A stretch of DNA of 45,562 nt, taken from assembly GCA_032718475.1 (NCBI GenBank), contig JAUCBJ010005501.1:1-45562 (forward strand), given 5' to 3'. The stretch comes from Nemertoderma westbladi (taxonomy: Eukaryota; Animalia; Xenacoelomorpha). Both the position numbers and the translations under genes were made by a program. Below are positions 150 to 42,245 of this stretch, in pieces. Below the pieces are notes generated by a model, which worked only from the letters and a program-made list of their open reading frames with translations, did no database searches and was not told where the DNA came from. How positions within the stretch are numbered: the first letter of the stretch is position 1; the number at the start of each line of letters is the position of its first letter.

Positions 150-330
150 TGGTTTTAGGTTAGCATAGTGTAATATTGTATTTGTAACCAAGTAACATAA
201 AGGACCCCCTTGGAAATAAGCTGCAAAGCTTTAGGGGTAAACCTATATGCTACAGTATGTTGGACAATACCTATATGCATTATTTGGTGCATCTGTTATT
301 GATTTTTACATGTATAAATAAATCTATCCA
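150..330 (+). mobile_element. Possible 3' end of a CR1/L2-group LINE or related SINE
   Basis: AT-rich tract with GGACCCCCTTGGAAATAAGCTG...TAGGGGTAAACC followed by AATAAA (~316). Resemblance is from memory of such 3' UTRs only; no ORF. Confidence 0.2.
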
Positions 331-332
331 TT

Positions 333-505
333 TGTCTTATTCATTTGTTTTATATGGGACGCCAATTTAGATGTAAAAGGTTTACAATGTGCCAACTATA
401 AATATGTGAACAATTTGCCAATTTCGTGAACAAAAGACTACATAACGCCAGTATGTATGTAAAATAGTTATATTTCGCCAAAAGTGACGATAGCCAATAT
501 GATCT
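333..505. repeat. Dispersed direct repeat module A, copy 1 (others at ~1786-1960 and ~3870-3977)
   Basis: Shared TTTGTTTTATATGGGA...ACGCCAATTTAGATGTAAAA.GTTTACAATGTGCCAACTATAAATA... in three diverged copies. Confidence 0.85.
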
Positions 506-584
506 TATTGTGTGGTTCTGCTTAGGTTCTGGATACGACATGGTTCATTGTGTGTCTTTGAGGAATGATTCTGTTTTGCGTTTT

Positions 585-865
585 AAAGTAAAGTAAAGTA
601 AAAAAAGTAAATTTTCTTCGGCCGCTTGGCCAGGGATTACGCACAAAGTCTGATTTCCAGTGCGGTCCCCCCAGAACTTAACTCCCCAGAGGAAACTCTA
701 GTACTCATTTAGCTACCACTTAAGGATGCAAGGCAGAGATGAGCCCTGGCTGGTCCCTTTAAAGCATTCGTGCCGGAACAAAAACTGCCCTGGCCCATGT
801 AAGGATCGAAACCACAACCTACAGGAGATGTGAATTCAATGCAACCACCACACCAAGGTAGAACC
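585..865 (-). mobile_element. tRNA-derived SINE, apparently full length
   Basis: Minus strand: A-box-like TGGTGTGGTGG, B-box-like GTTTCGATCC, body motif CTCTGCCTTGCATCC...TAAATGAGTAC (related to the 37105 motif) and a (TACTT)n tail at 585-610. No TSD found. Confidence 0.7.
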
Positions 866-1054
866 TAATGTGGTTGAGTATTTTAGTCAGCACAGACTCG
901 TCTTCATTACAACTATCATTGCACTCGTTTAATAAGTCTGCGTTCACCAAAATAAATGGGCTGGTCCAGACCGACCCCAATAAGCTAAACTTGGTGAATG
1001 CAATCACTGATCAGCCGACGGCAGCCATCTGATCGGTAGGTTTCTCCTCACGAT

Positions 1055-1195
1055 TGAAGGCATTCTCAAGAGGCAGGCCAAGAGATGACATTAAGAGTGG
1101 AGCCCCAAAGGGGATGGGACGGCTGATGAAACGAACATATGTGTGAACAATAAACATCCACTGGGAAGCAGCACCGAAAACTTGCACCAATCACG
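1055..1195. repeat. Direct repeat, second copy at 4028-4169
   Basis: TGAAGGCATTCTCAAGAGG...CCAAGAGATGACA.TAAGAGTG...TCCACTGGGAAGCAGCACC...CCAATCACG in both places. Confidence 0.85.
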
Positions 1196-1410
1196 TTTCA
1201 GTACTGGTATTGGTATGACGGACTGTTCAATGTCTAGGTACGCCCTACAAGTAATAATGACAAGGTTTTAATGTTGTTCATGTTAAGGTTAGGATAAAGA
1301 TTCGTATTATGCGATCAGACAACTTTAATGATGGGGGTTTTTTCAATTTTAATGACCGGTTTTTTTAATTTAAATGATAGGGGTTTATTTATGACATATA
1401 AATATGAAAT

Positions 1411-1746
1411 ATGATGCTAAATATGTTAACAATTTGCCAATGAGGTTATTAAGTCTACATATCGCCAGGTTATATGTAAAATGGTTTCAATACGCCCAGA
1501 GTAAGGGTATGGTTCAGTTTTGCGTTATCGTTATTATGGTTTCATGTAAGGGTTCTGTTTCAAGATATGATTATGATTCGGGTACGGCTTTAGATCTCTT
1601 AAGGTCACAGTGCAGGTAATGATACCGGTATGGTTTTGTTATGATCCATATTATGGTTCAGATTAAGGTTTGGCTATTGGTTCAGTGGCTTTCCAAACAA
1701 ATTACTGTACGCTGGACATTCCTAAATATTACCCGCAGAATTCTGC
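1411..1746. repeat. Direct repeat module B, uninterrupted copy; the paralog is split into ~2150-2308 and ~3670-3862
   Basis: ATGCTAAATATGT.AACAATTTGCCAATG...TTCTGTTTCAAGAT|ATGATTCGGGTA...AATATTACCCGCAGAAT. Provides the empty site for the 2311-3669 transposon. Confidence 0.85.
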
Positions 1747-3290
1747 TCAGTTAATTTTGTGGTTTCTGACATATAAAAAATAACATGTCTTATCAATTTG
1801 TTTTATATGGGAATTTGAATTGAAACGCCAATTTAGATGTAAAATGTTTACAATGTGCCAACTATAAATATGCAAATTTCGTGAATAAAAGACTACATAA
1901 CGCCAGTATCTACGTAAAATGGTTTTAATTCGACAAAAATTGTCGATAGCCAATATGATCTCTTCAGCTCTTCATATATTGTATAATTATATATAATGTA
2001 TATTATATTATTATATAATAGGAGCTCTTCATAGCATTTCTACTAAGTATATTCTGGCACACGAACATCAAAAAACTTGTCTCAATTTGTAATATTTACG
2101 AACATGTAATGAAACACCAATTTTGTTATAAAATATTCGGCATGCGCCAGATGCTAAATATGTAAACAATTTGCCAATGTGGTTATTAAAAGTCTACATA
2201 TCGCCAGGGTATATGTAAAATGGCTTCAGTACGCCCAGAGTAATGGTATGGTTAAGTTTTGCGATTTTTGGTGTTATGGTTTCATGTTATAGTTCTGTTT
2301 CAAGATTTTATCGTCCCTTTCATTTTCAAACAACCTAAATGACAAAAATGTATTTTCCTGTAAAACGGCATTTTCGATTCTAATTTTGTTTGAAAGTAAT
2401 ATTCCCGGATTTTGGTCTTATTTACTTTTGAATCCATTAAATTTAACGATTTTAAACGAAAAAAGTTATGGTATTGGAATTATGTAACATATTAGGTAGG
2501 AAACAATGTATAGGGATATAGGTTGTTTCAAAAAAAATATTTCATTTTTCACAATGATCACTCAAAAATTATTAAAACCCTTAAGACGAATTCGATTATT
2601 AAGTTTTAAAAATATAAAACAAATCTCCCTCTATCATAATAAACAACAATTCTAGCTCCTGATTCGTTGTTTCCAATTTTAAATCAACGTTTCGTAAATT
2701 TCTTTATCATGCGGTCTATGCAAAACTGGCATATAGGTGGTTTTGAAAAGTTAAATATCTCAGTTATACGTGGGAGGGGGCATGGCCTTCTAAGTGTGTT
2801 AATCGGATTCAGAATACATTTTGATTATTGATAGTAACAATGTGTTGGCAAGCTGTATTTTTCGAGGTGTTTGTTATTTTACTTTTATAAGAAGGGATCT
2901 AGGGGTCTTAACCTCGAATGATAAGTTTATTTTACCGAAAATAACTTATCTTTTATTGGCGCAATTGTAGGACTAATCCCATCACATGCGTACTTTTTAA
3001 CCGGGTAGTGTACAAATTTAGGAATCGCGTAATTTTTCTTGAAATTAATATCTCATATCTCTCCAAACCATGTGATGGGATTAGTCCTACAATTGCGCCA
3101 ATAAAAGATAAGTTATTTTCGGTAAAATAAACTTATCATTCGAGGTTAAGACCCTAGATCCCTTCTTATAAAAGTAAAATAACAAACACCTCGAAAAATA
3201 CAGCTTGCCAACACATTGTTACTATCAATAATCAAAAATCAGGGGCTAAAAAATGGCAGCTGTCTTTGAAATTAATACTCCATATCTCAA

Positions 3291-3353
3291 GAACATGTGG
3301 CCTAGTGGTTGTAGTCTCGGCTTCCGCCTCGAGGTCCCAGGTTCGAATCCGAC
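3291..3353 (+). promoter_or_regulatory. tRNA-like internal RNA Pol III promoter
   Basis: A box TGGCCTAGTGG (3298-3308) and B box GGTTCGAATCC (3340-3350), both consensus-quality with tRNA-like spacing; no full cloverleaf. Confidence 0.8.
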
Positions 3354-3396
3354 ACCACGCTGATGAGACCCAGTAAGGTCGAAACGCGTACGTGGT
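3354..3396 (+). ncRNA. Minimal type I hammerhead ribozyme
   Basis: Stem I ACCACG (3354-59) / CGTGGT (3391-96); core CTGATGA (3360-66); stem II GACC-cagtaa-GGTC; GAAA (3381-84); palindromic minimal stem III ACGCGT; predicted cleavage after GUA (A3390). Confidence 0.88.
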
Positions 3397-6392
3397 TTGG
3401 AGAGATATGAGATATTAATTTCAAGAAAAATTACGCGATTCCTAAATTTGTACACTACCCGGTTAAAAAGTACGCATGTGATGGGATTAGTCCTACAATT
3501 GCGCCAATAAAAGATAAGTTATTTTCGGTAAAATAAACTTATCATTCGAGGTTAAGACCCCTAGATCCCTTCTTATAAAAGTAAAAGAATACATTTTAAC
3601 ATAGAGAAACGCAGAAATCACCATTTCGGCAAAAATGGCATATAGGTGGTTTCAAAATGAAAGGGACGATATGGTTATGATGATTCGGGTAAGTCTTTAG
3701 ATCTCTTAAGGTCACAGTGCAGGTGATACCGGTATGGTTTTGCCTATGATTTTGAAGGTCCATGTATGTTATGGTTCAGTTGATGTAAATAATGTGGCCT
3801 TCGAAACAAATTACAGTACACTGGACTGGACATTCCTAAATATTACCCGCAGAATCATTCTGCTTATTATTAATTTGTTTTATATGGGAATTTGAATTGA
3901 AACGCCACTTTAGTTGTAAAATGTTTACAGTGTGCCAACAATAAATAGGTCAACAATTTGCCAATTTCGTGAATAAACTCGTCTCCATCACTAGACTGGT
4001 TGCGCTCGTACTGTTTCGCATCACAAATGAAGGCATTCTCAAGAGGGAGCCCAAGAGATGACAATAAGAGTGAAGCCTCAAAGGGGAAAGGAACGGCCTA
4101 CGAAACTAATATAGTTGTGGGCAGTAACTATCCACTGGGAAGCAGCACCACAAACTTGCGCCAATCACGCTTCTGTATTTAATTTTTGTATATTGGCTGT
4201 TTGGTATAACTGGTACATGCGATGCAGCCTGCAGGATAAAAAGTCTAAATTAGATCCTAAAAAACCTGACTTTGGTGAACCTAGCAAACTTCTTAGGCTT
4301 CTTATGCGAACATAAATCGTAAATTGCTGATAATTTACTGTAGGTCCCGTGTTTTTACTTAGGCCTATATACCACAATAAATGCCATTAATAGTCACCCC
4401 ATGAGTTTATAGCTTTAATTAATATTATGCTCATTTTAATTGTTTATATTAAAAATGGTTTATTTTTTATTGCTAGCCAGGGTGCCGTCAAAAAGAATTA
4501 TAAATCGTTCCCCAGGAACATATGCTTTTTTCGTTGCATGAAATACAAGAGATGATAGGATGATGACAAACGCCACTTATGATGAATTTTTTGGTCTTAA
4601 GTAGCATTATCGCCATTGTGGCGTTAAGATGACGTGCCTACAAAACGCCATTATATCCCGCAGAACGCCCTCATCTTATATAAACAGGTCGCAAAAGCGC
4701 CAATATACATATTTCGACATGGCGTATTTGTTAAGCGCAACATCTATATATATATATTATGCCTGTTATATATAATTCCTGGAAATAGGTGGCAAAGTCG
4801 AAACGAACCTCAGGTGCGAATGGTGATAAATTTGAATCTGATGCACTTATGAATCAAGAGTTGATCATATTGATCCATTACCTCATACCGAAATTATTCC
4901 CACAAAAACTTCCACATCAGTCTTGTTTCCCACCGCATTATATGTTCTGTAGATGTTCTAGTAACTGTTTAAATTGCCAAGATTGGAATTGGTGTAATAA
5001 TCTCTTACTTAATGAGAGAATGTCAGAGTTGTGAAGTGCAACTACAGGTGTTTTGATTAATCATGCAGACCGAACAATGGAACCGAAAACTAGCGCTACT
5101 CCAAATGTGACGGTTGGCTAAAGGGGGTAACAGACGTTTCGGTCTAACACGTTTTGGCCTAGGACGTTTCGGCCCAATGAATGAATTACAAGATTTGCTT
5201 GTCGGACGTTTTGGCCCAAAGATGCACTTTACTCCCTTAAATAATAATATTAAATAATAATAATAAGTTATTCAATATATTTGTTTTTGTTTTGTAGTTG
5301 TTACGTTCGTTACAAGAGGAGTTGTCAGTAGGAACTGCTCCGACACCTGTTTGAAAGTCGTCAAGATCGAAGTTCTACATTACATTTATAAATAATAACT
5401 AATGTAATATTATTATTATTATTTATTAATATAAATTTACACCGAACTGTAACTTAGAACAAAGATAACATATTATGCTGATAAATTAACTTTAGTATTA
5501 TGATGATGGGGTTTCCCCCATGACCCAACCGATCAACTGATGTTGCAATTACTACGCGTCGCCGCGTTAGGGAATACTGATGGCTGAAAGCCGGGTAAAA
5601 TAAGAGTTTGTTGTTAATTATCGTTGTTAATAATTATGAAGGAGTATGTATTGACACTCGCTTAAATGTTAGGTGATTATTGAAATTAATTTAGTATAAG
5701 TTAACAATAATGTATTCCATGAAATGAGATTCTCAGTGATTCATGCATTCGTCTTTCGAGCTTACCGTTTTAGTTGCATCATTCAACTTAGCCTGTGTTT
5801 TGTATTGGTTACAATCTTCCAGAAACTTAGGTGTGGGTGGGTAGTGGGTGGGTGGTCTCGGTGTGTGGGGTAGGGTAGCGGGTTTGTGTATGTTGATTTT
5901 ATGTTCATTTTCGTCGGAGATCGGGAGTGGGAGAGGTGATGAGTTGGGGCAGTTCCGCGGCAATAATAATACTGCCCCTCAATAAAGAGACCCCCTTTAC
6001 TGCTATCAGGGACGCGTTGTTCGACAGAGCCCCGTCAGCAAAAACAGTCAGTACCGCTAGTCGGTGGGGTTGACTTGTTGACGAGAGGCTATTTACAGGC
6101 GCATCGGTCAACCATTACTGACCAAGGCTCAGATAGTTTACCGTTAAATTAATTACAGCCCAATCAGTATATAATATTAGTTACGGATGATGGTGAAAAC
6201 TGTGCGACATCCTACATAAATGATATAGCCAACAGAATTGGTAGGAACGTGATATCAATATGTTTAAAAACAGGGAAAAACACAACAACGTAGGCTTAAC
6301 ACGTATAATTGGCCATCCAAACAATACACATCCCAATAATCGCTTGGTGTCCTTCATTAGTCGGCATATACCAGCCTCACAATTCCAATCTC

Positions 6393-8326
6393 CCCTTGGT
6401 GTTCCACATTGTTGCTCATTTCTCCCCATTGTTGCTCATTGCTCCGCATTGTTGCTCGTTGTTGCTCATCAGTGCTCATTATTGCTCGGTGTTCCACAGT
6501 GTTGCTCATTGCTCCCCATTGTTCCTCATTGTTGCTCATTTCTCCCCATTGTTTCTCGTTGTTGCTCATTATTGCTCGTTGTTGCTCGGTGTTCCACATT
6601 GTTGGTCATTGTTGCTCATTGCTACCCATTGTTCCTCATTGTTGCTCATTTCTCCCAATTGTTACTCGTTGTTGCTCATTATTGCTCGTTGTTGCTCGGT
6701 GTTCCACATTGTTAGTCATTGTTGCTCATTGCTCCCATTGTTACTCGGTGTTTCACATTGTTTCTCATTGCTCCCCATTGTTACTCGTTGTTGCTCATTT
6801 CTCCCCATCGTTACTCATTGTTGCTCATTTCTCCCCATTGTTTCTCGTTGTTGCTCATTATTGCTCGTTGTTGCTCGGTGTTCCACATTGTTAGTCATTG
6901 TTGCTCATTGCTCCCATTGTTACTCGGTGTTTCACATTGTTGGTCATTGTTGGTCATTGCTACCCATTGTTCCTCATTGTTGCTCATTTCTCCCCATTGT
7001 TACTCGTTGTTGCTCATTGCTCCCCATTGTTCCACATTGTTGGTCATTGTTGCTCATTGCTACCCATTGTTCCTCATTGTTGCTCATTTCTCCCCATTGT
7101 TACTCGTTGTTGCTCATTATTGCTCGTTGTTCCCCATTGTTGCTCGTTGTTCCTCATTGTTACTCGTTGTTGCTCATTGCTCCCCATTGTTACTCGTTGT
7201 TGCTCATTATTGCTCGTTGTTGCTCGGTGTTCCACATTGTTAGTCATTGTTGCTCATTGCTCCCATTGTTACTCGGTGTTTCACATTGTTTCTAATTTCT
7301 CCCCATTGTTACTGGTTGTTGCTCATTTCTCCCAATCGTTACTCGTTGTTGCTCATTTCTCCCCATTATTACTCGTTGTTGCTCATTGCTCCCCATTGTT
7401 CCTCATTGCTCCCCTTTGTTACTCGTTGTTGCTCATTATTGCTCGTTGTTGCTCGGTGTTCCCCATTGTTGCTCATTGCTCCGCATTGTTGCTCATCATT
7501 GCTCGTTGTTGCCCGTTGGTCATTGTTGCTCATTGCTCCACATTGTTCCTCATTGCTCCCCATTGTTACTCGTTGTTGCTCAATTCTCCCCATTTTACTC
7601 GTTGTTGCTCATTGCTCCCCATTGTTACTCGTTGTTGCTCATTGCTCCCCATTGTTACTCGTTGTAGCTCATTTCTCCCCATTGTTCCTCATTGTTGCTC
7701 ATTGCTCCCCATTGTTACTCGTTGTTGCTCATTATTGCTCGTTGTTGCTCGCTGTTCCCCATTGTTGCTCGTTTCTCCTCATTGTTGCTCATTGCTCCCC
7801 ATTGTTACTCGTTGTGGCTAATTATTGCTCGTTGTTCCCCATTGTTGCTCGTTGTTCCTCATTGTTGCTCATTGCTCCCCATTGTTACTCGTTGTTGCTC
7901 ATTATTGATCGTTCTTGCTCGGTGTTCCCCATTGTTGCTCGTTGTTCCCCATTGTTGCTCGTTGTTGCTCATTGCTCCCCATTGTTACTCGTTGTTGCTC
8001 ATTATTGCTCGTTCTTGCTCGGTGTTCCCCATTGTTGCTCGTTGTTCCCCATTGTTGCTCGTTGTTCCTCATTATTACTCGTTGTTGCTCATTGCTCCCC
8101 ATTGTTCCTCATTGTTGCTCATTGCTCCCCATTGTTACTCGTTGTTGCTCATTATTGCTCGTTCTTGCTCGGTGTTCCCCATTGTTGCTCGTTGTTCCCC
8201 ATTGTTGCTCGTTGTTCCTCATTGTTGATCATTGCTCCTCATTGTTACTCGTTGTTGCTCATTATTGCTCGTTCTTGCTCGGTGTTCCCCATTGTTGCTC
8301 GTTGTTGCTCATTGCTCCCCATTGTC
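6393..8326. repeat. Complex minisatellite of 9-12-bp subunits (CATTGTTGCT / CATTGCTCCC / CGTTGTTGCT variants)
   Basis: Continuous reiteration of related subunits; produces overlapping low-complexity ORFs in all three + frames. Confidence 0.95.
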
Positions 8327-8683
8327 GTTCTTGGACTTACTCTGGACTTACTGGTTCACTTTACTTAACTTTATATTCTTTATGATAAGGAGGGAGGTTT
8401 CCGTTTGTGTTAAACAATATCTGATTTGATTTATAATCATTTAATAATTCTATTAATTCTATTAATTCTAATAACTCATAACAATTTGCTTTAAAATGAC
8501 AGTGATTGGCACATTAATTAAATATTAGTTGTTTGCAACGATAATAATTAAACACAATGAATCCGCACTTTATGGAAAAATATACAAAACAAATGTTCAG
8601 ATCAGATGCGTTATAAACAAATTACAAGTTGTAGATATTGTGCAGGTTAAAAATTCAGAGAGCCGTCCTTCAAACAGTGAATA

Positions 8684-8705
8684 TCTAATATATATAAATC
8701 TCGAT

Positions 8706-8737
<32 letters not shown>

Positions 8738-10025
8738 ATCAGCTATACAATCGAACCCATCTCGATGAAATCTCGCTTGCTATAGCTCGTTAGAAAGGTC
8801 TCGCTCTAACTCGTTGCAACGTAATACTCAGAGTCGTCTGAAGTTCACCCGTCTGCCGCTAGAGGGCGATTTTCGTGATTTTCGGGCGAAATTTATCGAA
8901 TTATTTCGGTTCTTCTATCGGTAATTAATGATTTAGAGGGCTAACATTTATCCCACCTGGTATAAAATTAACATGGGTAGATTCGCCGTGTCCCATTCTC
9001 ACAAAGTTTTTATTTTATTCGAGTGTTTAATATAAATATGTATGCTTATTTATTGATTAAAAATCAAATAGTGTATAAATATGTCATATTCGCCAAGCAC
9101 GATCGAATTGGCCTATTGCTATTGAATAGGGAAGGATTGTTTTCTGTATCATAGCAACGTTAAGGTAATTATTGAACTCGCAGCTAGCTGGCTGGGCACA
9201 GATAAGGAGCAAGCAGGCTGGAGTGTTGATTGGGGTGGGTTTGGGTTGTCTATTGCTAATTGCTCAGAGTAATTCTGCTTTTTCAATCATTGGCTGCATG
9301 GAAGGAGAGGTTTATAACATTTTTGTTTTACTGTTATGAATATTAAAAGGAAAATAATTATTTCTGTAGGCCTATACTTACTGTATTATTATTTTATCTA
9401 ATAGTATACATCTAATCTCGATGAAATCTCGCTTACTATAGCTCGTTAGATAGGTCTCGCCCTAAGTCGTTGCAACGTAATACTCAGAGCCGTCTGAAGT
9501 TCCCCCGTCTGCCGCTAGAGGGCGAAATATCTGATAGTGAACACCTCATCCCATTTGGTTCTTTTTAATCCTATTGAGCTGGAACTTGGCAGGAGTCTAC
9601 TACAGCATATTCTGTATCTTTACGGAGTCCCAGAGTCGTCTACAGTTCTTCAGTCTACCGCTAGAGGGTGAAATGTCTGAATGTGAACATCTACACCAAT
9701 TTTGTTATTTACAATCTGTTTAAGCTGAAACTTGAAAGGCAGGCATTTTACTTCACCATAAACCCAATCTTTACCAAACTGCAGCGCCGTCTGCATTTCA
9801 CCAGTCCGCAGGTAGAGGGTGGATCTGAAAGTGATCATTTTCTGGAAATTTTGTTATTTACAATCTGCCTAAAGTTGAAACTTGACAGTTATCTCTTATG
9901 GGGGTGGTGTTTTATTTAATGATGGTGTCTGTTCCGTATGCAGTTCTCAAATCTCCCACACATATTCATATATCATCTGCACGTGCACTAGAAAGCTGTG
10001 GCCCGAAGGGCCACAGGCTTTCTAG
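8684..10025 (+). mobile_element. Helitron unit 1 (short; most of the internal satellite is missing)
   Basis: TC start, CTAG end joined directly to the next TC. Confidence 0.9.
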
Positions 10026-10539
10026 TCTAATATATATAAATATCGATTGTCTGTCTGTCTGTCTGTCTGTTTGTCATCAGCTATACAATCGAACCCATCT
10101 CGATGAAATCTCGCTTGCTATAGCTCGTTAGAAAGGTCTCGCTCTAACTCGTTGCAACGTAATACTCAGAGTCGTCTGAAGTTCACCCGTCTGCCGCTAG
10201 AGGGCGATTTTCGTGATTTTCTAATATATATAAATATCGATTGTCTGTCTGTCTGTCTGTCTGTTTGTCATCAGCTATACAATCGAACCCATCTCGATGA
10301 AATCTCGCTTGCTATAGCTCGTTAGAAAGGTCTCGCTCTAACTCGTTGCAACGTAATACTCAGAGTCGTCTGAAGTTCACCCGTCTGCCGCTAGAGGGCG
10401 AATTGTTCGATACTGAAAACCTGATCTCATTGGGTTGTTTTTAATGCTTTTGAGCTGAAACTTGGTTGCTATATACTGCAGCAGCAGCATAGGCTGTATA
10501 TTTCCGGTCCACAGTTTTATGTTGTCCACAGTTCCCCAG

Positions 10540-11660
10540 TCTACCGTTAGAGGGCTAAATGTCTGAGAGTTAACATCTTCTCCAACTTTGTTATTTACAA
10601 TCCGTTTAGACTGAAACTTGGTAGGCATCTACTACAGCAAAGGCTGTATCTTTACTGAGTCGCAGAGTCGTCTACAATTCCCCAGTCTACCGCTAGAGGG
10701 CGAAATGTCTGAAAGTTAACATCTTCTCCAACTTTGTTATTTACAATCCGTTTAGACTGAAACTTGGTAGGCATCTACTACAGCAAAGGCTGTATCTTTA
10801 CTGAGTCGCAGAGTCGTCTACAATTCCCCAGTCTACCGTTAGAGGGCTAAATGTCTGAGAGTTAACATCTTCTCCAACTTTGTTATTTACAATCCGTTTA
10901 GACTGAAACTTGGTAGGCATCTACTACAGCAAAGGCTGTATCTTTACTGAGTCGCAGAGTCGTCTACAATTCCCCAGTCTACCGCTAGAGGGCGAAATGT
11001 CTGAGAGTTAACATCTTCTCCAACTTTGTTATTTACAATCCGTTTAGACTGAAACTTGGTAGGCATCTACTACAGCAAAGGCTGTATCTTTACTGAGTCA
11101 CAGAGTCGTCTACAATTCCCCAGTCTACCGCTAGAGGGCTAAATGTCTGAGAGTTAACATCTTCTCCAACTTTGTTATTTACAATCCGGTTAGACTGAAA
11201 CTTGGTAGGCATCTACTACAGCAAAGGCTGTATCTTTACTGAGTCGCAGAGTCGTCTACAATTCCCCAGTCTACCGCTAGAGGGCGAAATGTCTGAAAGT
11301 TAACATCTCCTCCAACTTTGTTATTTACAATCCTTTTAGACTGAAACTTGGTAGGCATCTACTATAGCATAGGCTATATCTTTGCGGAGTAGTAGAGTCA
11401 TCTACAGTTCCACAGTCAGCCGCTAGAGGGCGAATTGTCTGATAGTGAAAACCTCATCCCATTTGGTTCTTTTTAATCATTTTGAGCTGAAACTTGGTTG
11501 GTATCTACTACATCATAGGCTGTATCTTTACGGGGTTGCAGAATCCTATTCACTTCCCCAGTCTACCGCTAGAGGGTGAAATGTCTGAAAGTTAACATCT
11601 TCTCCAACTTGTTATTTACTAACGGTTAGACTGAAACTTGGTAGGCTTCTACTACAGCAT
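10540..11660. repeat. Example block of the Helitron-internal 146-bp satellite
   Basis: CTGAAACTTGGTAGG recurs at 10611, 10757 and 10903 (period 146). Similar blocks at ~13.3-14.4, 15.5-16.9, 18.7-20.0, 21.8-23.5, 24.6-25.7, 26.5-27.6 and 28.8-29.5 kb. Confidence 0.95.
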
Positions 11661-31942: not shown

Positions 31943-34900
31943 TTAAATAATTATTTTATATTTTGTGCGTGGGAAGGGCGTCTCGCCCTCATTCCCACCC
32001 CCCTCAGTCCAAAACTTTGGACGACTAAAAACTCTCACGTGCCCCTTCTTCCGGTAGGCACTCTCCTGCTGCCCTCCTATACGTCCTCTAGCTCTTCGCC
32101 ACACTCTCTTCGGTGCCACCTTTACTGGCCTCCCCCTTCGTATGTGCGCTGGCATTAGGGCCCTCGACGACCCCCGCTCGTCCCTCGGTATACGCGGTGT
32201 CTGCCCGTGCAATGCCCCCTCGCACTGTGTCCGTCCTGTGTGTGTATGCAACACGCCTCCTTCTACTTTCCCGACTCCCTTATGTTTTCTAATGGGCTTC
32301 TCTGCCCCTGGTTTAGTCCTTTCATATCCTCTCTCTTTCCAACACTCTCCGGATCTGTGTCCTTTTACCACACATCGATGACATAGTCCGTTTGCGTCTG
32401 TGTAGGCTACACGATCTCGTTTGGGCAACGCTTGCCAATACTTGCAACTCCTGGTCTTGTGGGTTCCGTCCCGATGTAATTGACATTGGAATCTTGGATT
32501 ATAGCGTTTCCTGTATAGTCCTTCACGTATCGCGCTTAGGTTTATATGTACCGATTTAATGTTTTGGTTGTCTAGACTCGGCCTACTGGGTATATTGGGA
32601 TTGTGTTTATTTATGGTGTTATTTTCTTTCTGTCCCTGCCACGGTGTGGCCCTGCTCCCAGCTAACTGTGGACTGGTAGTCCCCTGTATGGCCGCGTGTG
32701 GTGGTGACTGTCCGCACGACCTGTTCTCGTCCAGGGAGTTCGATGTTCTCGCTCCTATCGGGGTACATTGTCGATATTGTAATGGGGGAATGTCACCCTG
32801 TCCCCCCCCAGCCGGTATGTTTGGTACTGGGGTTGATGTTAATACATTGGGGCCCATACGTCTATCTCCAATAACTCCCCCCTCCCCTGGATATATGTTA
32901 TGTCCCTGTGTATTATAGTCATGCTGCTGTACCGATATAGGCCTACCTACCTCTCGCCTATCTACCGGTATGTACTCCGCGACTTCCGGGTTTAATCCCG
33001 TCGTTCGCGCTACCCCATCGCCTACTCTATCTCTCCCAGCATGGCCTATAATAGTATGTGCAGTAAGGCCTACAGTATGTCCTGCAGTCTGCATGTGCCC
33101 TTCCGAACCGAAGTTTATTCTTCGCGAATCTCGAATCTCCCCGCGACTACTGCACTCTCGATCGGCAGCTATATCCCGTCGGGAAGCTTCCCTTCGATCC
33201 CCTATCCTGCTCTCGTCTTCGTATTGGTACGTCTTGTACCCCTCTCTTGGCGTGCGGTGCGTTTCTCCGGGGCGACGGCAATCTCCCGAAGTTCGACCCC
33301 ACTGGCCCCCTGTCTCCATCTCTACTATCGACGGTTCGTTATCCGTCCTCGCGCTGCTATCGTTCGTGGCGACACTTCTTCTACTATCTTCTCTTCTTCT
33401 CTTTTCTGTGTAGTATTCCGGCTCGTGAGATCTCTCGTCGACCTCCCGGTTAAACTCCACTCTTCCTCCTCCCTCTTCTGATCGGGCTCGACGCTTCGTC
33501 TGCCCTCTCGCGACGTCAACCTGCCTCTCTCTACTCGATCGCACGCCGCTGGGGATACTCGCAATCCCCCTATTACTCTCCGTCGCCGGGTGTTGCGGTT
33601 TACCTGATTCGGCCCGCGCATTATCCGCTGACGGCTGTGGGACACTCTCTGCCCCCCCTCTCTCTCTACTAATCTCTCGCGGTGGGGTGCCCGCAGCCCC
33701 CCCCCCCACCCGCCACTTCTAACTTCACTATTTCTTACTACACTTCTATACCCCTCTTGTGGGGCATTCTCTGCCCCCCCTCTCTCGCCACTAATCTTAT
33801 GTGGTGGGGCGCCCGTAGCCCCCCCCCACCCGCCACATCTAACTTCACTATCTCTTACTTCGTCTCTACACCCCTCTCTAGTCGACGCACTGTCTCTACT
33901 ACGGCTGGGTCTATTCACCCCCGCCTCTCTCTCTACTACTGCGTGGCCCACCAGGCCTACTTCGGGTTGGCTCAACCCCGCTACCTCCTGCCTACCAACT
34001 ACGTGGCCTACCAGGCCGCCGTCGGGTTGGCTCAACCCTGCCACTTCCTGCCTACTAACTACGTGGCCTACCAGGCCACCGTCTGCCGGGTCATGTACGT
34101 CCGACACGCTCATATTAATAGCACCATTCCCAATATTATTTGTTAAATCAATTAAATTATTAGAATTTGAAACGGAATTATTATTTAAATTATTTAAATT
34201 ACTTAGATCACTACTATTCTCTAAACTTAAATTATTATTCGAATTATTTTGCGGGTTTGAATTGAAATTATTATTTAGAATATTTGTATTTAAATTTAAA
34301 TTACTACTACCCGGTAAAATATTATTTCCTGTAATAAAGGGATTAGGGTTATCTACTACGGTACTATTAATATTAACTGTCTCTAACGTACTACTACTAC
34401 CCCCCCCGCCCGTACGGCTACACCAGTTCTGGCTCTCTCGCCCGGTGCCTGTAAGTGGGGGCTCACTCTCTGATATCTCCAACCGCGCCAGTTCTAGTCG
34501 GCGCCGTTTAAGTTTGGCCCGATATTGCGCAAGCAGCGCCAGTCGGTCAAGCAAAAGATATCGCTCACGCTTTTGCTTTAACTCTCTCTCTCCGCACTCT
34601 CGGGACTCTCTCGCAAGCATCCCAGGCTGCCTCGCCGGCTCGCTCTCTATTCTCCCGGTTATTATCGCGATATGCTCCCGCTCTCTACGCTCCTCGGCCC
34701 TCTCTCTATCCTCCCTTACCAACTCTAATAATGCGGTTTGCTCTCTCAATTGCCCCTCTAACTGTTTCCGCTCTGCCGCCGCCTTTTCTAATTTATACGC
34801 CACGCGTTCACTCTCTCGCACCCTTCTTTCTTTTGCGGAGGATGTAGCAGACTTATCGGTTGCGACGGACTCCCGTCGCCCCTCCGTCCTACTAACTTTC

Positions 34901-35661
34901 CCCCGCTTCCCGGAACTTCCTCCGACCGACGAGACCGAATCCTCGGAGTTAACCTCGGATTCGCCCTCCCCAGGTCTCTTCCAACCCACTAACCTAAATT
35001 CCCTGGCATCGACTAAGTATGGCCCTATGTACACTACACCAGGCCCCATACCCCTACGTTCCCATAGTTTAAACAGTTCGAAGGCAACCCCTCTCGCTCG
35101 CTCCCTGGCCAGTTCTCCCTGCCCAGAACGCACTAGGTGATCAAAGTATCTGTTCGACTCACCTAGTCGTCTCCTCAGTCTCACCTCGTCTATCTTCGCC
35201 CCTCCTTTGGCCTCTCTCAGTTGCTCCCTGGTCGCGAGGTAGGCCCGTCGAAGTCGATCAGAAACCCCGACGTCCTCGTCGCCGACCTCTCCTCTGTCTC
35301 TCCGGGTCCGACGTCGTACCGACGGCCCCACCGTCGCCGTTCCGGTGGACCGTTTGTCGTCCTCGGCCTGTGGCGGACCGGCGACATCGGTTCGTCGACC
35401 CTCGCTCCGCGTCGACTCGTCTTTCTCTTCTCCTCCCGACTCGTCTCCTCTACTCGACTCGCTCTCTCCTGGTAGACGACCCCCCACACCTTGGTTCGCC
35501 GTGTTGCTCGTTATCGACGTGGCGTCAACGTGCGTCGACGTGGTCGGCGTAGCATCGACCGGCGTCGTGGGTTCGCATCGTCTCGCCGTGGCCTCGCGGA
35601 TCGTTAGATCGTCGTCCGGGGTCCGCGGCGGTGTCGTTCCTTTCTCTCCTATTCGGCTCAT
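31943..35661 (-). CDS. Gag-derived ~1240-aa protein, split by one frameshift in a homopolymer run (33697-33707)
   Basis: First true ATG at 35661 (MSRIGEK; the track's start at 35868 is GTG). Charged coiled-coil-like region, Asn-rich tract, peptide repeats, and C-terminal CQLH...HKTRSC...LCHRCVVKGHRSGEC knuckles (CX2CX4HX4C) of BEL/Pao type. Confidence 0.7.
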
Positions 35662-35808
35662 CTTTGTCTTTGGTGTCAGTCTATCACTGTCAGGGCAGCT
35701 GGGCGGATCTAGTTCTGTCACTGTGACGGGATCTACGGATCCCGGTTTATCCGTTTGGGTTTTCTGCCCACGCGTCCCCGCCGTGTGTGAAAGGTAAAAG
35801 AGTTCTGA

Positions 35809-36271
35809 TGTTGGGTAATATGTATAAAGGTATAATAGTCCGACAGTTGATATAATGTAGTATGACACAATAGGTAATATATAATGGCGGTAGCGGACGG
35901 TGACAGAAGTCCCCGTTCCACCCTACTGATCTGACTGAGTAAACTGAATAACTGACCGGTATGATTACTGGTAACTGGTTATATTGCACGGTGGCCTTAT
36001 TGCTACTCAATCGATGCCTTTCCCCCCTCTGATTGGTTGATACCCCTGTTGGCACCCTTTGCCCCCCTCTGAAGTGCTTCCCTTCGCCCTTGCTGTTCTC
36101 TCTCTTGTCAGGGGAGTAACCCCTGACCCTTATTGTGTGTGTCTCCTTTGGGGCCTATTGTCCCCGTTTACTGGGCTGACACGAGGTTGATTGGTAATCA
36201 ACCTCGTGCTCCCAATATTGCTTTATGGCTCACTCTATGGGTTTGTGTTAGCGGAATTGGATAAGCTAACA
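35809..36271 (-). repeat. 5' LTR (inner boundary inferred)
   Basis: Starts TGTTAG; putative end CCAACA at 35809 gives TGTT/AACA termini. Only 35959-36271 is confirmed by the second copy; no PBS recognised. Confidence 0.55.
35950..36036 (-). promoter_or_regulatory. LTR Pol II core promoter
   Basis: Minus strand CCAATCAG (~36036-36029), TATAA starting at 35983, Inr-like TCAGTT with A at 35953, i.e. TATA at -30. Confidence 0.6.
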
Positions 36272-37031
36272 CTGAAAGTTAACATCTTCTACAACTTTGT
36301 TATTTACTAACGGTTTAGACTGAAACTTGGTAGGCATCTACTACAGCATAGGCTGTACCTTTCCGGAGTCACAGAGTTGTATACAGTCCCCCCATCTGCC
36401 ACTAGATGGCGACATATCTGATAGTGAACACCTCATCCCATTTGGTTCTTTTTAATCCTATTGAGCTGGAACTTGGCAGGAATCTACTACACTACAGCAT
36501 ATTCTGTATCTTTTTACGGAGTCCTAGAGTCGTCTACAGTTCTTCAGTCTACCGCTAGAGGGTGAAATGTTTGAATATGAACATCTACACCAATTTTGTT
36601 ATTTACAATCTGTTTAAGCTGAAACTTGAAAGGCAGGCATTTTACTTCACCATAAACCCCATCTTTACCAAACTGCAGCGCCGTCTGCATTTCACCAGTC
36701 CGCAGGTAGAGGGTGGATCTGAAAGTGATAATTTTCTGGAAATTTTGTTATTTACAATCTGCCTAAAGTTGAAACTTGACAGTTATCTCTTATGAGGGTG
36801 GTGTTTTATTTAATGATGGTGTCTGTTCCGTATGCAGTTCTCAAATCTCCCACACATATTCATATATCATCTGCACGTGCACTAGAAAGCTGTGGCCCGA
36901 AGGGCCACAGGCTTTCTAGTAATACATATAATAATGATTATCGTAAATCAATTTTGTTTTTTTTTAAATGTTCCAAATGCCAGTTTCATAAAAATCACGT
37001 TCTTTGATGGAAAATATACTATGTATACGAA

Positions 37032-37140
37032 GGCGGGGTAGCTCAGTTGGTTGAGCGCCGAGCCTATAATCTATTGGATGAAGGTTCGAGCCCCGCCAAG
37101 GTCCACTCAGCCTTTCACCCACTGATAAAATAGAAGCAGT
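37032..37140 (+). mobile_element. tRNA-derived SINE head
   Basis: GGCGGGG (37032-38) pairs with CCCCGCC (37091-97); A box TAGCTCAGTTGG; D-arm GCTC/GAGC; B box GGTTCGAGCC; followed by CCACTCAGCCTTTCACC...GATAAAAT. Confidence 0.8.
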
Positions 37141-37154
37141 TGAATAAAACTTGG

Positions 37155-38544
37155 GATAGGAGTAGCGACCACCCCTACAACCCTACCTTCGGGTAGCAAA
37201 TAGGAGTAGCGTCCACCCCTACAACCCTACCTTCGGGTAGCAAATAGGAGTAGCGTCCACCCCTACCTTCGGGTAGCAGATAGGAGTAGCGTCCACCCCT
37301 ACCTTCGGGTAGCAGATAGGAGTAGCGCCCACCCCTACCTTCGGGTAGCAGATAGGAGTAGCGCCCACCCCTACCTTCGGGTAGCAGATAGGAGTAGCGC
37401 CCACCCCTACCTTCGGGTAGCAGATAGAAGTAGCGCCCACCCCTACCTTCGGGTAGCAGATAGGAGTAGCGCCCACCCCTACCTTCGGGTAGCAGATAGA
37501 AGTAGTGCCCACCCCTACAACCCTACCTTCGGGTAGCAAATAGGAGTAGCGTCCACCCCTACCTTCGGGTAGCAGATAGGAGTAGCGTCCACCCCTACCT
37601 TCGGGTAGCAGATAGGAGTAGCGCCCACCCCTACCTTCGGGTAGCAGATAGGAGTAGCGCCCACCCCTACCTTCGGGTAGCAGATAGGAGTAGCGCCCAC
37701 CCCTACAACCCTACCTTCGGGTAGCAAATAGGAGTAGCGTCCACCCCTACCTTCGGGTAGCAGATAGGAGTAGCGTCCACCCCTACCTTCGGGTAGCAGA
37801 TAGGAGTAGCGCCCACCCCTACCTTCGGGTAGCAGATAGGAGTAGCGCCCACCCCTACCTTCGGGTAGCAGATAGGAGTAGCGCCCACCCCTACAACCCT
37901 ACCTTCGGGTAGCAAATAGGAGTAGCGTCCACCCCTACCTTCGGGTAGCAGATAGGAGTAGCGTCCACCCCTACCTTCGGGTAGCAGATAGGAGTAGCGC
38001 CCACCCCTACCTTCGGGTAGCAGATAGGAGTAGCGCCCACCCCTACCTTCGGGTAGCAGATAGGAGTAGCGCCCACCCCTACCTTCGGGTAGCAGATAGG
38101 AGTAGCGCCCACCCCTACCTTCGGGTAGTAGATAGGAGTAGCGTCCACCCCTACCTTCGGGTAGCAGATAGGAGTAGCGCCCACCCCTACCTTCGGGTAG
38201 CAGATAGGAGTAGCGCCCACCCCTACAACCCTACCTTCGGGTAGCAAATAGGAGTAGCGTCCACCCCTACCTTCGGGTAGCAGATAGGAGTAGCGTCCAC
38301 CCCTACCTTCGGGTAGCAGATAGGAGTAGCGCCCACCCCTACCTTCGGGTAGCAGATAGGAGTAGCGCCCACCCCTACCTTCGGGTAGCAGATAGGAGTA
38401 GCGTCCACCCCTACCTTCGGGTAGCAGATAGGAGTAGCGCCCACCCCTACCTTCGGGTAGCAGATAGGAGTAGCGCCCACCCCTACCTTCGGGTAGCAGA
38501 TAGGAGTAGCGCCCACCCCTACCTTCGGGTAGCAGATAGGAGTA
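37155..38544. repeat. 36-bp minisatellite, ~38 copies, with higher-order structure
   Basis: Unit CCCTACCTTCGGGTAGCAGATAGGAGTAGCG(C/T)CCAC. An 8-bp insert coupled to a CAAATAGG variant recurs at spacings of 296, 188, 188 and 332 bp. Confidence 0.97.
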
Positions 38545-38551
38545 CCCTATT

Positions 38552-39945
38552 TTGGTTACCCTATGTTGGTTACCCCAAATGGTATACCCGACGCAAAGAA
38601 AGTCAACAGGCCGGACGGGCGGACCGCACCCAACGGGAGAATCTGTACAGCATCCTTCGAACCCATTGGAAGCACAGGCAATGGGAATGGCAACACTTAT
38701 CGATGCACTCAAGACCAGAATCGAGCTACCACCAGTAGAGCCATTTAAATTCGACGGAAGCAGACCGGAAGAATACCTGCAATTCCGGCGCATGTACAGC
38801 AACGAGATATTAACTAAGAACCTGACGCAGGCAGAGTGCCTAAAATATTTACAGGTATACACATGAGGCCCAGCGTACGACATCGTGAGGCAGTATCAGG
38901 GCATCGAGGGTGGCTTCACGACTGCATGGCGGGCCCTAGACAGGGAGTACGGACACCCTGCCAAGATCATCCGGCAGACCTTAAGGGGTATAACTTCGGG
39001 TGGCCTACAGGATAACCCTGTTAACATAAAGACCTTTGCGACCAAGGTCGAAAAGGCGTTAAACATGCTGAAAACGCTAGATGCGCCATACAAACTCAAC
39101 GCATCTAATAATATCACCACGATAGCGCAGGCACTGCCAATCTGGCTGCGAAATAAATGGAGAAAGATCGCCTTCTCCACCCGGGAGAAGAAAGGTGCGG
39201 CACCGGGCCTAGAGGAAATGTCGAACTTCTTCAACTATGAAGCAGAGTTAATCATGGACCCAGTCTACAGCGATGATAGTCTGGGGAAGGCACCGAGGGC
39301 CGAATACAACAGGCCGAAACCAGTGCATAACGCGGCAAATGCGTTGCCAAAATTAAGACAATCCCTACCATACGCGGCGACACAGGGGACTGCAAGTCCA
39401 CAGATAGCTGGAAGTGGGGCCAGACTGTGGCATGAACAGGGACAAAATAACAACACGAACAAATATAATCCCAACATACCCAGTAGGTCAAACTCAAATA
39501 ACCAAAACATTAAACCGGAAGACGTAAACCTACGCGCAATACATGTAGGGTTATATAGGGAACGTTACAACCCAGAAAACAAATGTCAATTGCATAAAGA
39601 CAGAACCCATAAGACCATGGGCATTGGCAGGCATTACCCGAACAAGATCGAAAAGCCTATGCGGATAAGAATGGAATTTGTCACCGATGTGTGATAGGAG
39701 GACACAAGGTTGAAGAGTGTAAGGAGACACCAGTAAGATTCGGTCAAGGCAAAGGTCAAACAATGGCGACAAGCACCATAGGGGCGAAGAAAAGGGGAAC
39801 GGTACTACTCGGGATAGTGCCAGGGGAAGGCGGTCGATCAGTTACTACGCTGATGCTGGTCGACAGCGGAGCAGCCTTCACATTGGTGGAGAATTGGGTG
39901 GCCGAGGAGATAGGGCTAAAGACGAGGCCAAGTATTTTAATCAAT
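38552..39945 (+). pseudogene. BEL/Pao gag-protease relic
   Basis: IELPPVEPFKFDG..EEYLQF...KYLQVYT*GPA...AWRALDREYGHP...LPIWLRNKW (DUF1759-like Gag); in-frame TGA at 38864-66; frameshift at ~39620; GICHRCVIGGHKVEEC knuckle; aspartic protease MLVDSGA; truncated afterwards. Confidence 0.88.
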
Positions 39946-40417
39946 GGAAAGGACCTGAGTCATTTTTACAAAACTTGGCACAATAAAATTTTAACCAACT
40001 GAAACAAGTTGGTAGTTATCCTCACAATCCAGGTTGTTTTACTCCGCATTGCGTACTGGTACACTGTTTATCAAATACACTGTTCATAGCATAAGATACA
40101 AATGATAATGATTACATAGTCAATAAGATAGTACAGTAATAATTGCACAACTTCGGCAAGATTGCAGGTGTTTTGTCTCCGTCTTTCTGTGGATACTCAG
40201 AGAGCAGAATGACAATATCAAAACGCCATTAATGTAGATGTCTATATACTGTCGGTACTGATATGTATTCTATCTGAAAATCAGTACCAGTAACCACCAT
40301 TACACTAAAACCAGTATACTGCTATATATTAAAGCACGCAACTCAACATTGTATAGTAACCCGCCACCAGCTGTTCTGTATGAAAAGAGGATATAAGAAA
40401 ATGATTATATTGGTCTA

Positions 40418-40446
40418 TCCCCACCCCCTTTCCTTTTTTTTCCTTT
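40418..40446 (-). other. Possible polypurine tract of the Gypsy relic (a 3' LTR would lie to the left)
   Basis: Minus strand purine-rich run GGAAAAAAAAGGAAAGGGGGTGGGGA downstream of the integrase relic; no second LTR available to confirm. Confidence 0.3.
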
Positions 40447-40889
40447 CGATTTTGACAGTCAAAATCGTTAATGAATAAATTTACTATTTTCTTTTGAAGC
40501 CTTTCGCTTTGTTAATGCATTGTGTCGGGTTTACTTTCAGTTTCTGTTTAACTTTAATTTCCATACTCATCTAGTGTAAAATCTAAATTTTTCTTCAGTG
40601 ATATGGTCTAAGAAAACGTTGGTTTCGCCACCAGGTGCGTCACGATGGTAGCTTAACCATATAATGGCGGTTTCTACCCACACCAGCAATCGTACCAATA
40701 TGTGACCAGCGATTGGTATTGGAGTCTTGTACACGAACATTAGACCCGATTTTGAGGCTGGGTAGATCAGTAGTGGTGTGGTTGTATAATTCCTCTGTTT
40801 TCTCACGGTGAGTGGCAGTTGCTGTGTCTCTTTCATCAGCCTCGTCTCATCATCACTGTGATGCTTCACTTGGGGAGTCTCCGTCACAC

Positions 40890-41010
40890 GAGGACAATTT
40901 CTGAGTTCCATAAATCCTTGGAGGAACTCCTCAGAGTGAATGTCGGGTTGAGAATACTTTGCCAGTAATGACTTGAGTCGTTTTACTAATGCTTCAGCAT
41001 GATCATTACT
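40890..41010 (-). pseudogene. Ty3/Gypsy integrase relic, C-terminal part of the core
   Basis: SNDHAEALVKRLKSLLAK...FLQGFMELRNCPR continues the TPHYPTSN motif from the other side of the LINE. Confidence 0.75.
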
Positions 41011-42245
41011 ACTACTAGGAACGGCATGCTGCATTTCAGCTGCATTTTTAAGAATGCTGTGCCGGCTTGTCGACAAAATTGCGCCGCCACAACTCCCTAT
41101 CACCCATGACATTTGCTAGATCATCGGCATCTTCAAGGCCAGTGTCCTTTAAGATGCGCCTCAAGAAAGTCATGGGCTGTCCACCATGCTTATTCACTCC
41201 ATGAGGCTGCCAAAGTACAAGATTATGCACTGGCTGGTCCTCACGGCGAAAGCAATGTCCTGCAAAGCGGAGGCGATTTTGTTCTAGTGTCAAGCTTGGG
41301 GGAACCAATGAGACAACTCCAATGTTATATAGTGTCTGGTTGAAGATGTGAGCATTGTACTTGACACAATGAACCCGGCGTAGCATTCTTGTGAATGTGC
41401 CATCCAGAGATTTGGTGTCCTCAGCAGTTAGAGCCCAGCATGGACTCCCATAGAGGAGTACTGGAACTACCGCTGCTCTAAATAATCGGACCTTAAGTTT
41501 CCGATTAATTCTCGGTGACTTCCAAATCCTAGAAAGCCTATTGAAGGCGGCCCATGCCTTTCCCTTACGTATTCGAAGGTCCTCACCTGACTTCCGGATC
41601 CATGATCCCAGGTAACAGAAGTCGTCCACATGCCCAAGCATACCATCCTTTGAGCTTATGCTCATCCGATCAGAGACTTGCTGAGGGCTTTCAAAGTTAA
41701 CTGTCAAAATGTTGGTCTTTCTGGAGTTAATAAAAAGACCAACACTAGAAGCAGCATGTTCTAGTGAGCTGAGGAGCCGTTGGGCTCCCTCTAGTGATTC
41801 TGAGAGTACTCCTAAGTCATCAGCAAAGTCTAGATCAGGATCTAGATCAGGATTTCCTCGACTTCTGGAGCCAGTAGGTGGAGTAATTATAATTATCATC
41901 ATATCATCATATGATCATCATAATTATGATGATCTAAGGACATGCGTAGAACATAGTCAACCACAATTATGAACAAGAATGGTACAAGTGTGTCTCCCTG
42001 GAGGACGCCCCATAACACTTCAAATGGTTGTATCACCGTCAACAGTAGACACAAATGTTGCCGAACCATCGTATACTGATCTGATTGCTGCAATAATTTC
42101 GTCAGGAATCCCATATAATGAAAGTATGCTGAACATACGTGAGCGAGAGACTGAATCAAAGGCCTTGAAGAAGTCAACAAAGATAACAGCCAGATGCCTG
42201 TCTTTCTTTATTGATAACTCTTCAATTATCCTTCTAAGTGCCAAA
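41011..42245 (-). mobile_element. 5'-truncated RTE-clade LINE (reverse transcriptase pseudogene)
   Basis: FVDFFKAFDSVSR, GVLQGDTLVPFLF, LDFADDL, FCYLGS, VLLYGSPCW across three frames; (AGT)n tail; 12-bp TSD ATGATCATTACT at 40999-41010 and 42246-42257. Confidence 0.92.

Follow-up and report, generated by a model that had tools for sequence, protein, structure and literature searches.

In insertions of Penelope-like elements (PLEs), a partial tandem stands next to a 5'-truncated copy in inverted orientation, and one of the ends carries a tail of 30-40 bp (PMC8557442). Pen2a_Av has an inverted pseudo-long terminal repeat (pLTR), a 31-bp tail and a 9-bp target-site duplication (TSD), one of several cases with TSDs of 8-10 bp (PMC3846280). 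A PLE protein nicks and extends both target strands at ATT motifs, starting from two sites inside an AC-rich stem-loop whose spacing equals the tail; its main substrate in vitro is uncut RNA, ribozyme cleavage being dispensable in vitro (PMC11167929). For the retrozymes of animals, mobilisation by PLEs and templates of circular RNA have been proposed (PMC7229834), and the kinship of retrozymes and PLEs is backed by phylogeny, with pLTR kinship for Xenopus families (bioRxiv 10.64898/2026.07.22.740005). What we draw from these and the other cited sources holds for the portions of them that were consulted. Here we describe an insertion at 2811-3597 of contig JAUCBJ010005501.1 from Nemertoderma westbladi (assembly GCA_032718475.1, positions 1 to 45,562; this whole stretch is called the window).

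The insertion is probably a young copy of a tRNA-headed retrozyme without long terminal repeats (non-LTR), placed in trans by a Penelope-like reverse transcriptase (RT) and endonuclease. An earlier note, made from the sequence of the window, had proposed that a self-cleaved RNA longer than one unit was recently reverse transcribed from a primed target, with a 5' inversion and an RT supplied in trans. The observations below support a recent insertion of this type from a non-coding template exceeding one unit, its 5' arm inverted and its RT borrowed.

Anatomy of the insertion

The 775-bp block between the two TSD copies is made wholly of one ~407-nt unit, which we number from C3391 (+1), the first nucleotide after the predicted ribozyme cut. 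The duplication itself, AGAATACATTTT (12 bp, at 2811-2822 and 3586-3597), has no further copy in the window; in a chance control, a direct repeat of at least 12 nt was met in 1 of 3000 random flank pairs. The target is AT-rich, and ATT is present on both of its strands. The forward arm (3069-3585) measures 517 nt, or 1.27 units; it begins at +85, passes +407 and ends in the next round at +195, position 3069 matching 3475 at a period of 406 that becomes 407 past a one-C indel. The inverted arm (2819-3070) measures 252 nt, including four T common to the TSD; it reproduces, as reverse complement, the 193 nt of 3393-3585 with 0 mismatches and then 3179-3237 (59 nt, identical), and it reaches 3390 if one mismatch is allowed. 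In unit coordinates it descends from +254 to +3, or to +1 and -1 with one mismatch. The layout that the earlier note had reported, a 12-bp TSD around a circularly permuted ~1.27-mer of period 406 and a 252-nt inverted copy whose start maps to 3393, is borne out in all its coordinates. The sole difference among the three arms is the one-C indel, which sets the first forward copy apart from the other two.

The unit is 406 or 407 nt long with a GC content of 0.39. No reading frame of at least 110 codons overlaps the block, which holds no open reading frame (ORF) with the RT and GIY-YIG domains of an autonomous PLE. One ribozyme core lies at the locus, within 1.27 units rather than a tandem of two full units, and a locus with a single ribozyme could not itself produce a unit circle. 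The features are as follows.

2811 to 2822, plus strand: left TSD, the last four T of which would double as priming microhomology for the inverted arm.
2819 to 3073, minus strand: inverted 5'-truncated copy, unit +254 to +3 (to +1/-1 with one mismatch).
2819 to 2877, minus strand: one-sided tail of 55-59 nt, 71% A+C, on the inverted arm and absent from the right end.
3069 to 3073, no strand: head-to-head junction, 2 nt common exactly and 4 of 5 with one mismatch.
3069 to 3237, plus strand: upstream copy, 5'-truncated and pLTR-like, +85 to +254, with the tail at 3179-3237.
3238 to 3585, plus strand: downstream copy, comprising upstream segment, tRNA head, hammerhead and body to the putative first priming site at +195.
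3265 to 3288, plus strand: 5' arm of the outer stem, which would close the module of tRNA head and ribozyme.
3295 to 3361, plus strand: decayed tRNA-like head, with A box 3298-3308 and B box 3340-3350, called by ARAGORN at 80% only.
3354 to 3396, plus strand: type I hammerhead of minimal form, its stem III a palindrome of two pairs, predicted to cut between 3390 and 3391.
3402 to 3425, plus strand: 3' arm of the outer stem, partner of 3265-3288.
3522 to 3525, plus strand: run of four T, a possible stop for RNA polymerase III (Pol III), upstream of both putative priming sites; a second run lies at 3116-3119.
3586 to 3597, plus strand: right TSD.
2309 to 3671, no strand: host repeat with imperfect inverted ends (2309-2344 and 3636-3671, 89%), inside which the element is inserted.

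A tRNA-like head and a predicted hammerhead

The A and B boxes form the one match of their kind in the window, with 0 in 100 shuffles, and ARAGORN calls a tRNA here after relaxation to 80%. These tRNA-derived boxes stand directly 5' of the predicted hammerhead, an arrangement of the Sm-alpha type. The hammerhead presents a complete core and the three stems of type I: stem I (3354-3359 with 3391-3396), core 3360-3366, stem II (3367-3370 with 3377-3380), GAAA at 3381-3384, GTA at 3388-3390 and a two-pair palindromic stem III, and the fold prediction gives stems I and II pair probabilities of 0.76-1.0. The flanks 3266-3288 and 3402-3424 are complementary, as had been noticed earlier, and form a 23-nt stem enclosing head and ribozyme. 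This module folds with a z score of -4.5, against -0.07 and -1.84 for the two remaining parts of the unit. Folded as a circle, the unit reaches a z score of -3.8, compared with -2.1 to +1.9 for 9 control stretches, and the cut ends stay paired. Rfam matches to miRNA families were rejected, as they merely reflect the fold-back.

Abundance and age of the family

Contigs from three studies of one organism (X1, X2 and X4, of which X1 is possibly the window's own source) were aligned to a 1401-nt stretch that includes the host flanks, and 3797, 1551 and 101 of them, respectively, match it. At the edge of the block, summed contig depth climbs 17-20-fold in both X1 and X2; when the depth is folded on the unit, it stands at 434,000-769,000 in X1 (flank median 4,300), 206,000-484,000 in X2 (1,650) and 3,200-11,500 in X4 (90), these summed depths and fold rises not being copy numbers. 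Because the folded depth is even within about twofold round the unit, at 100-290x the flank median in X1 and X2, the head, ribozyme, body and tail travel together. The evenness also fits arrays elsewhere, which contigs of this length are too short to display. The block represents a high-copy family, distinct from and far commoner than the host repeat, so that the earlier note's own counter-proposal, a single-copy block or a part of the host transposon, does not hold. Its unit is a high-copy, non-coding repeat of ~407-411 nt in which a predicted hammerhead comes after a tRNA-like head. In X4, two pieces of the host repeat end exactly at 2822, as expected of block-free host copies. The joined empty-site form 2822-3598 is absent from the best 15 of 95 joints, and the window holds no second copy of the site.

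All three arms have in common certain letters seldom met elsewhere in the family; at 2879, the letter differs in 72001 of 72353 of the depth in X1 and in 55883 of 55925 in X2. Since the arms share rare letters and differ by one indel, we read them as the product of one source allele and a single very recent event, in agreement with the earlier impression of nearly identical copies and a recent insertion. This copy departs from the family majority at several places in 3250-3326, including two minority letters in the tRNA head, at 3295 (99.9% of the X1 depth differs) and at 3326 (93%), where the majority letter makes a more tRNA-like anticodon loop. The source of this copy was probably a minority variant of the family, because its letters differ from the majority while the arms differ from one another by one indel only. 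In X4, deep variant contigs (depth 401-1158) carry other joints, 2977-3340, 3382-3463 and 2923-3423, which suggests subfamilies of differing internal structure.

One contig of 441 nt, from a collection with another organism label (X5, RNA only by guess), covers 3152-3578 with 8 other letters and 4 gaps, and its length equals a ~410-411-nt unit plus a 30-nt overlap, that is, a closed loop. This loop was set aside and not used as evidence, since tandem DNA yields the same loop and the contig may be DNA.

Insertion ends and the mobilising enzyme

The ends of other copies were read from the best 15 of 95 joints, 12 of 56 further joint rows and 18 of 650 loose ends, with 25 of 5617 pieces in addition, all chosen by support and not at random. 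Eight of the 15 joints were not counted, 3 because they lie in the host repeat, 2 because they join opposite strands and read as same-sense jumps, and 3 because they are internal deletions or duplications; this leaves nine further head-to-head joints, 7 among the 15 and 2 among the 12 further rows. The ends of other copies gather at two sites, about +188 to +205 and +246 to +255, and the present copy ends at +195 on the right and at +250 to +254 on the left, the +195 site lying within the loop of a predicted stem (3139-3146 with 3188-3195). Loose ends at 3578 occur in 24 contigs of X1 and 19 of X2, and the flanks beyond 3578 are unlike one another (agreement 0.55 in X1 and 0.49 in X2); 5 contigs of X2 end at 3238, and 3 of X4 at 2824 and 2827. 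Such recurring ends are as the two-site priming of PLEs predicts. A clustering at the ribozyme cut, as the earlier note had expected, is found nowhere among these joints and loose ends.

Two hallmarks of endonuclease-bearing (EN+) PLEs are present at this locus, namely an inverted 5'-truncated copy beside a partial tandem, and a one-sided tail lying between two recurring RT start sites. Neither end of the block bears a poly(A), a simple-repeat or another tail typical of long interspersed elements (LINEs), and both ends lie inside the unit, in which the block departs from the classical LINE-dependent short interspersed elements (SINEs). The partner is narrowed to a Penelope-like enzyme because the inverted arm with its tail, the partial tandem, the two internal starts and the lack of poly(A) occur together. 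A LINE partner is unlikely; of the two candidates that the earlier note had named, Penelope-like or LINE, the PLE layout with its two start sites upholds the former, and the missing poly(A) speaks against the latter.

If a Penelope-like enzyme was responsible, the steps may have been these. Arrays at the source would be transcribed into multimers, likely by Pol III from the A and B boxes of an upstream unit. With a palindromic stem III of only two pairs, efficient cutting would call for the pairing of two ribozymes, and uncut multimers, cut monomers and ligated circles would coexist. The PLE enzyme would then nick both strands of an AT-rich target, 12 nt apart. From the bottom nick, synthesis would be primed at the first internal site (+195) and copy 517 nt across the ribozyme site into a second round; from the top nick, it would start at the second site, where four T meet four A (+250 to +254), and proceed to +3/+1. 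The two cDNA 3' ends would anneal through a CA(C/T)GT microhomology, followed by fill-in.

Several points weigh against this reconstruction. Part of the sharpness of the 3578 peak comes from a 3-nt deletion, rare in the family, at which alignments to this copy halt. The tail of 55-59 nt is longer than the published 30-40 nt. No autonomous PLE with the same end sequence was found within the window, where 0 of the 8 ORFs scanned have a GIY-YIG match. No listed contig spans the locus, whose own junctions are thus read from a single data set. The hammerhead matches Rfam Hammerhead_HH9 at E=3.5e-4, with 26.6 bits against a gathering score of 52, and no match anywhere in the window reaches an Rfam gathering score. 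Finally, the four T at 3522-3525, which had been flagged before and are indeed present, lie ahead of both priming sites, and a Pol III transcript could terminate at them.

The inner junction and the form of the template

The inner end of the inverted arm falls at +1 to +3, and the earlier note had taken it as the record of the ribozyme cut. By chance an end would fall there in ~1.3% of cases if ends were uniform over 230 nt, or in 4% for a 10-nt zone, both figures being post hoc. A cDNA ending exactly at +1 would pair at 3 of 4 positions with the other cDNA, including a terminal G-C pair. Against this, a microhomology of 4 in 5 sits exactly at the inner junction and suffices to place it, and among the 9 other fold-back joints listed, 0 end at the cut, their stops spanning +82 to +222. 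None of the best 18 of 650 loose-end rows lies at 3391-3393 or 3070-3073, and of the 12 listed pieces starting within 3314-3427, 10 have their start 10-77 nt upstream of the cut and continue past it. These counts lower the claim of a cut end without killing it, because the rows are a small, support-picked part of the whole; within the PLE model, we would give about an even chance, by judgement rather than computation, that the inner end marks a real cut. A junction first formed at a 6-nt match (3386-3391 with 3470-3475) and then shortened by an 8-nt deletion is a less simple account.

The forward arm needs a template continuous over the ribozyme site, and the template RNA likely ran unbroken through it. 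The same forward arm would come from a circle closed by ligation, from a multimer left uncut or from a jump between monomers. Hammerheads with a palindromic stem III are said to cut efficiently only as dimers (PMC6765202), and uncut multimers are to be expected because of this stem and because uncut RNA is the main substrate of the PLE enzyme in vitro. The rare allele shared by the arms favours one molecule or one homogeneous source. Thus the more-than-unit-length RNA of the earlier note stands, as a multimer or a unit-plus template, and its circle in particular does not follow, an uncut read-through multimer giving the same DNA. Within the PLE model, our rough judgement assigns somewhat under half of the weight to an uncut multimer, about two fifths to a circle or nicked circle, and a small remainder to a jump between linear monomers.

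The strongest alternative makes the circle explicit. A tRNA-headed circular RNA driven by Pol III would be copied by a Penelope enzyme, one RT rolling for 1.27 rounds on a ligated or nicked 406-nt circle with a self-cleaved end at +1, and a second RT running off at the nick; stem I and the 23-nt outer stem would hold the monomer shut. We regard this as possible yet doubtful. It draws on the position of the inner end, the 3 of 4 pairing of a cDNA ending at +1, the one rare allele common to all arms and the circular fold with its paired cut ends, and it is the cycle already proposed in PMC7229834. Against it stand these points: the fold signal comes from the local module and not from a rod-like circle, the microhomology can set the junction, an uncut multimer would leave identical DNA, neither the nine fold-back joints nor the 18 loose-end rows lie at the cut, and PMC11167929 found no RNA ends at the cut for an anole PLE. 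If the circular reading were true, rolling-circle reverse transcription of a retrozyme would have left a direct record of itself in the genome at this locus, and the family would be a "PLE-dependent SINE", a combination met in none of the titles and abstract openings surveyed.

Other origins of the block

It is improbable that the copies are trimmed ends of an autonomous PLE, with a tRNA-like motif in its pLTR by coincidence, rather than an independent non-autonomous family. The layout is as in truncated PLE insertions (PMC8557442, PMC3846280), and some contigs do exit the unit at the tail end (3238). However, the tail end continues into head and ribozyme at high depth (3205-3392), closing a loop of ~407 nt, the contigs exiting at 3238 are mutually unlike (0.51), which is expected of flanks and not of one ORF, and no frame of at least 110 codons extends over the block.

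A tRNA-derived SINE copied by a LINE of the RTE or L1 type with twin priming is very improbable. The A and B boxes and the 12-bp TSD are compatible with it, an RT fragment lies at 41051-42355, and the top-strand cut would be TTTT/AA, which we take to be the motif of the L1 endonuclease. However, the block lacks a poly(A) or simple-repeat tail, both of its ends are internal to the unit and correspond to the two recurring sites, and the unit contains sequence 5' of the tRNA head that is not expected in a plain SINE transcript. Moreover, twin priming on one linear RNA yields abutting arms, whereas these arms overlap by 169 nt of template.

An assembly artefact or a local template switch, to which the trouble that inverted repeats cause assemblers (PMC8557442) and the absence of a listed contig spanning the locus might point, is hardly credible beside the exact 12-bp TSD, the like fold-back joints in other copies (some in two studies) and the two X4 host-repeat pieces that stop exactly at 2822.

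Neighbouring repeats and hammerheads beside tRNAs elsewhere

In the host region (260-4177), diverged repeats are nested in one another, with several partial copies and with inverted ends that match imperfectly. It is followed by a 2-kb array of degenerate 10-bp units (6295-8325) and by ~21 kb of composite repeats (8677-29550), each of which contains (TGTC)n and arrayed units of 146 bp; they look like non-autonomous repeats of the Helitron type. Decayed retroelements occupy 31943-42359, with two long ORFs without Pfam matches at 31943-35922, a 36-bp minisatellite at 37181-38544, DUF1759 and aspartyl-protease matches at 38870-39999, a region that we take to be BEL/Pao-like, and RVT_1 and DUF6451 at 41051-42355 on the minus strand, an RT fragment of a class other than PLE.

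A motif scan of metagenome contigs returned 5 loci, 0 of which resemble the insert, and the same scan of viral contigs returned 0 loci. A hammerhead adjoins tRNA-His in 2 of 5 loci of one motif scan. In the first (L001, 347-553), a metagenome tRNA cluster that is likely of phage origin, a well-formed type I hammerhead stands between tRNA-Thr and tRNA-His; its stem I pairs the 3' end of the former with the 5' end of the latter, and the predicted cut, between 478 and 479, falls at position -1 of tRNA-His. It has no Rfam match at E<=0.1. This could be a ribozyme generating tRNA ends, for which nothing was found in literature titles and abstract listings. In the second (L002, 1027-1302), another tRNA cluster, a tRNA-His (1128-1201, minus strand) lies between two hammerheads, a Hammerhead_1 at 1027-1073 above gathering (40.4 against 34 bits) and a Hammerhead_3-like match at 1239-1302 (E 0.003), with a GOLLD RNA at 169-639.

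Comparison with known systems

Metazoan non-LTR retrozymes are non-coding, 150-450 bp long and below 50% GC, with a type I hammerhead and a TSD of more than 4 bp (PMC7229834), and the block family agrees with them in unit size, GC, lack of coding capacity, type I hammerhead, many copies and TSD length. It differs in three respects. The single ribozyme in 1.27 units falls short of the two full units by which a retrozyme is called active (bioRxiv 10.64898/2026.07.22.740005); the promoter here is tRNA-derived, "pol III" and "polymerase III" occurring 0 times in PMC7229834; and an inverted arm with a tail is not described for retrozymes in the consulted portions of PMC7229834 and bioRxiv 10.64898/2026.07.22.740005. 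The Schistosoma Sm-alpha and Sj-alpha elements share the tRNA-derived Pol III promoter followed directly by a hammerhead, the very high copy number, and a promoter at the 3' end of the cut monomer (PMC6765202, PMC2770079), and because of this last position an at least partial tandem is needed. The likeness lies in the layout; in contrast to Sm-alpha, the present unit is longer, a 23-nt stem closes its head and ribozyme, and its ends are of the PLE type, which the consulted parts of PMC6765202 and PMC2770079 do not mention for Sm-alpha.

The EN+ PLEs Pen2a_Av and anole PAc resemble the insertion in the inverted 5'-truncated copy by a partial tandem and the one-sided tail (PMC3846280, PMC8557442), as well as in a TSD of about 8-12 bp, an AT-rich target, a minimal palindromic hammerhead and two internal starts (PMC11167929); here, unlike in these elements as described, there is no ORF, a tRNA head is present, and the tail measures 55-59 nt against 30-40. 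The non-autonomous PLEs of Chlamys, such as MRC1 (PMC8557442), and the short non-autonomous Penelope elements of Heliconius (10.1101/596502) are likewise non-coding, have pLTRs or head-to-tail copies and depend on PLEs, but the portions consulted mention neither a tRNA head nor a hammerhead in these elements. A tRNA head, a hammerhead and PLE-type ends were found jointly in no published description, among titles and abstract openings that covered few subscription papers.

The insertion layout is already known, as is each of its ingredients, and the PLE origin of animal retrozymes has been argued in print. Earlier work has addressed the movement of animal retrozymes and the role of the hammerhead in the cycle of PLEs: PMC7229834 proposes that PLEs copy circles, bioRxiv 10.64898/2026.07.22.740005 supports the kinship by phylogeny and, in the parts consulted, defers the mechanism, and PMC11167929 reports that cleavage is dispensable in vitro. 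In a young and very abundant family with readable junctions, these questions become countable: do 5' ends accumulate at the cut, and with what frequency do cDNAs extend beyond one round? The family ties the Sm-alpha layout, a tRNA promoter with a hammerhead, to ends of the PLE type. It joins the non-LTR retrozyme and Sm-alpha kind, with unusually clear signs of PLE mobilisation at the level of the insertion, and what is gained is a good test system rather than a new class.

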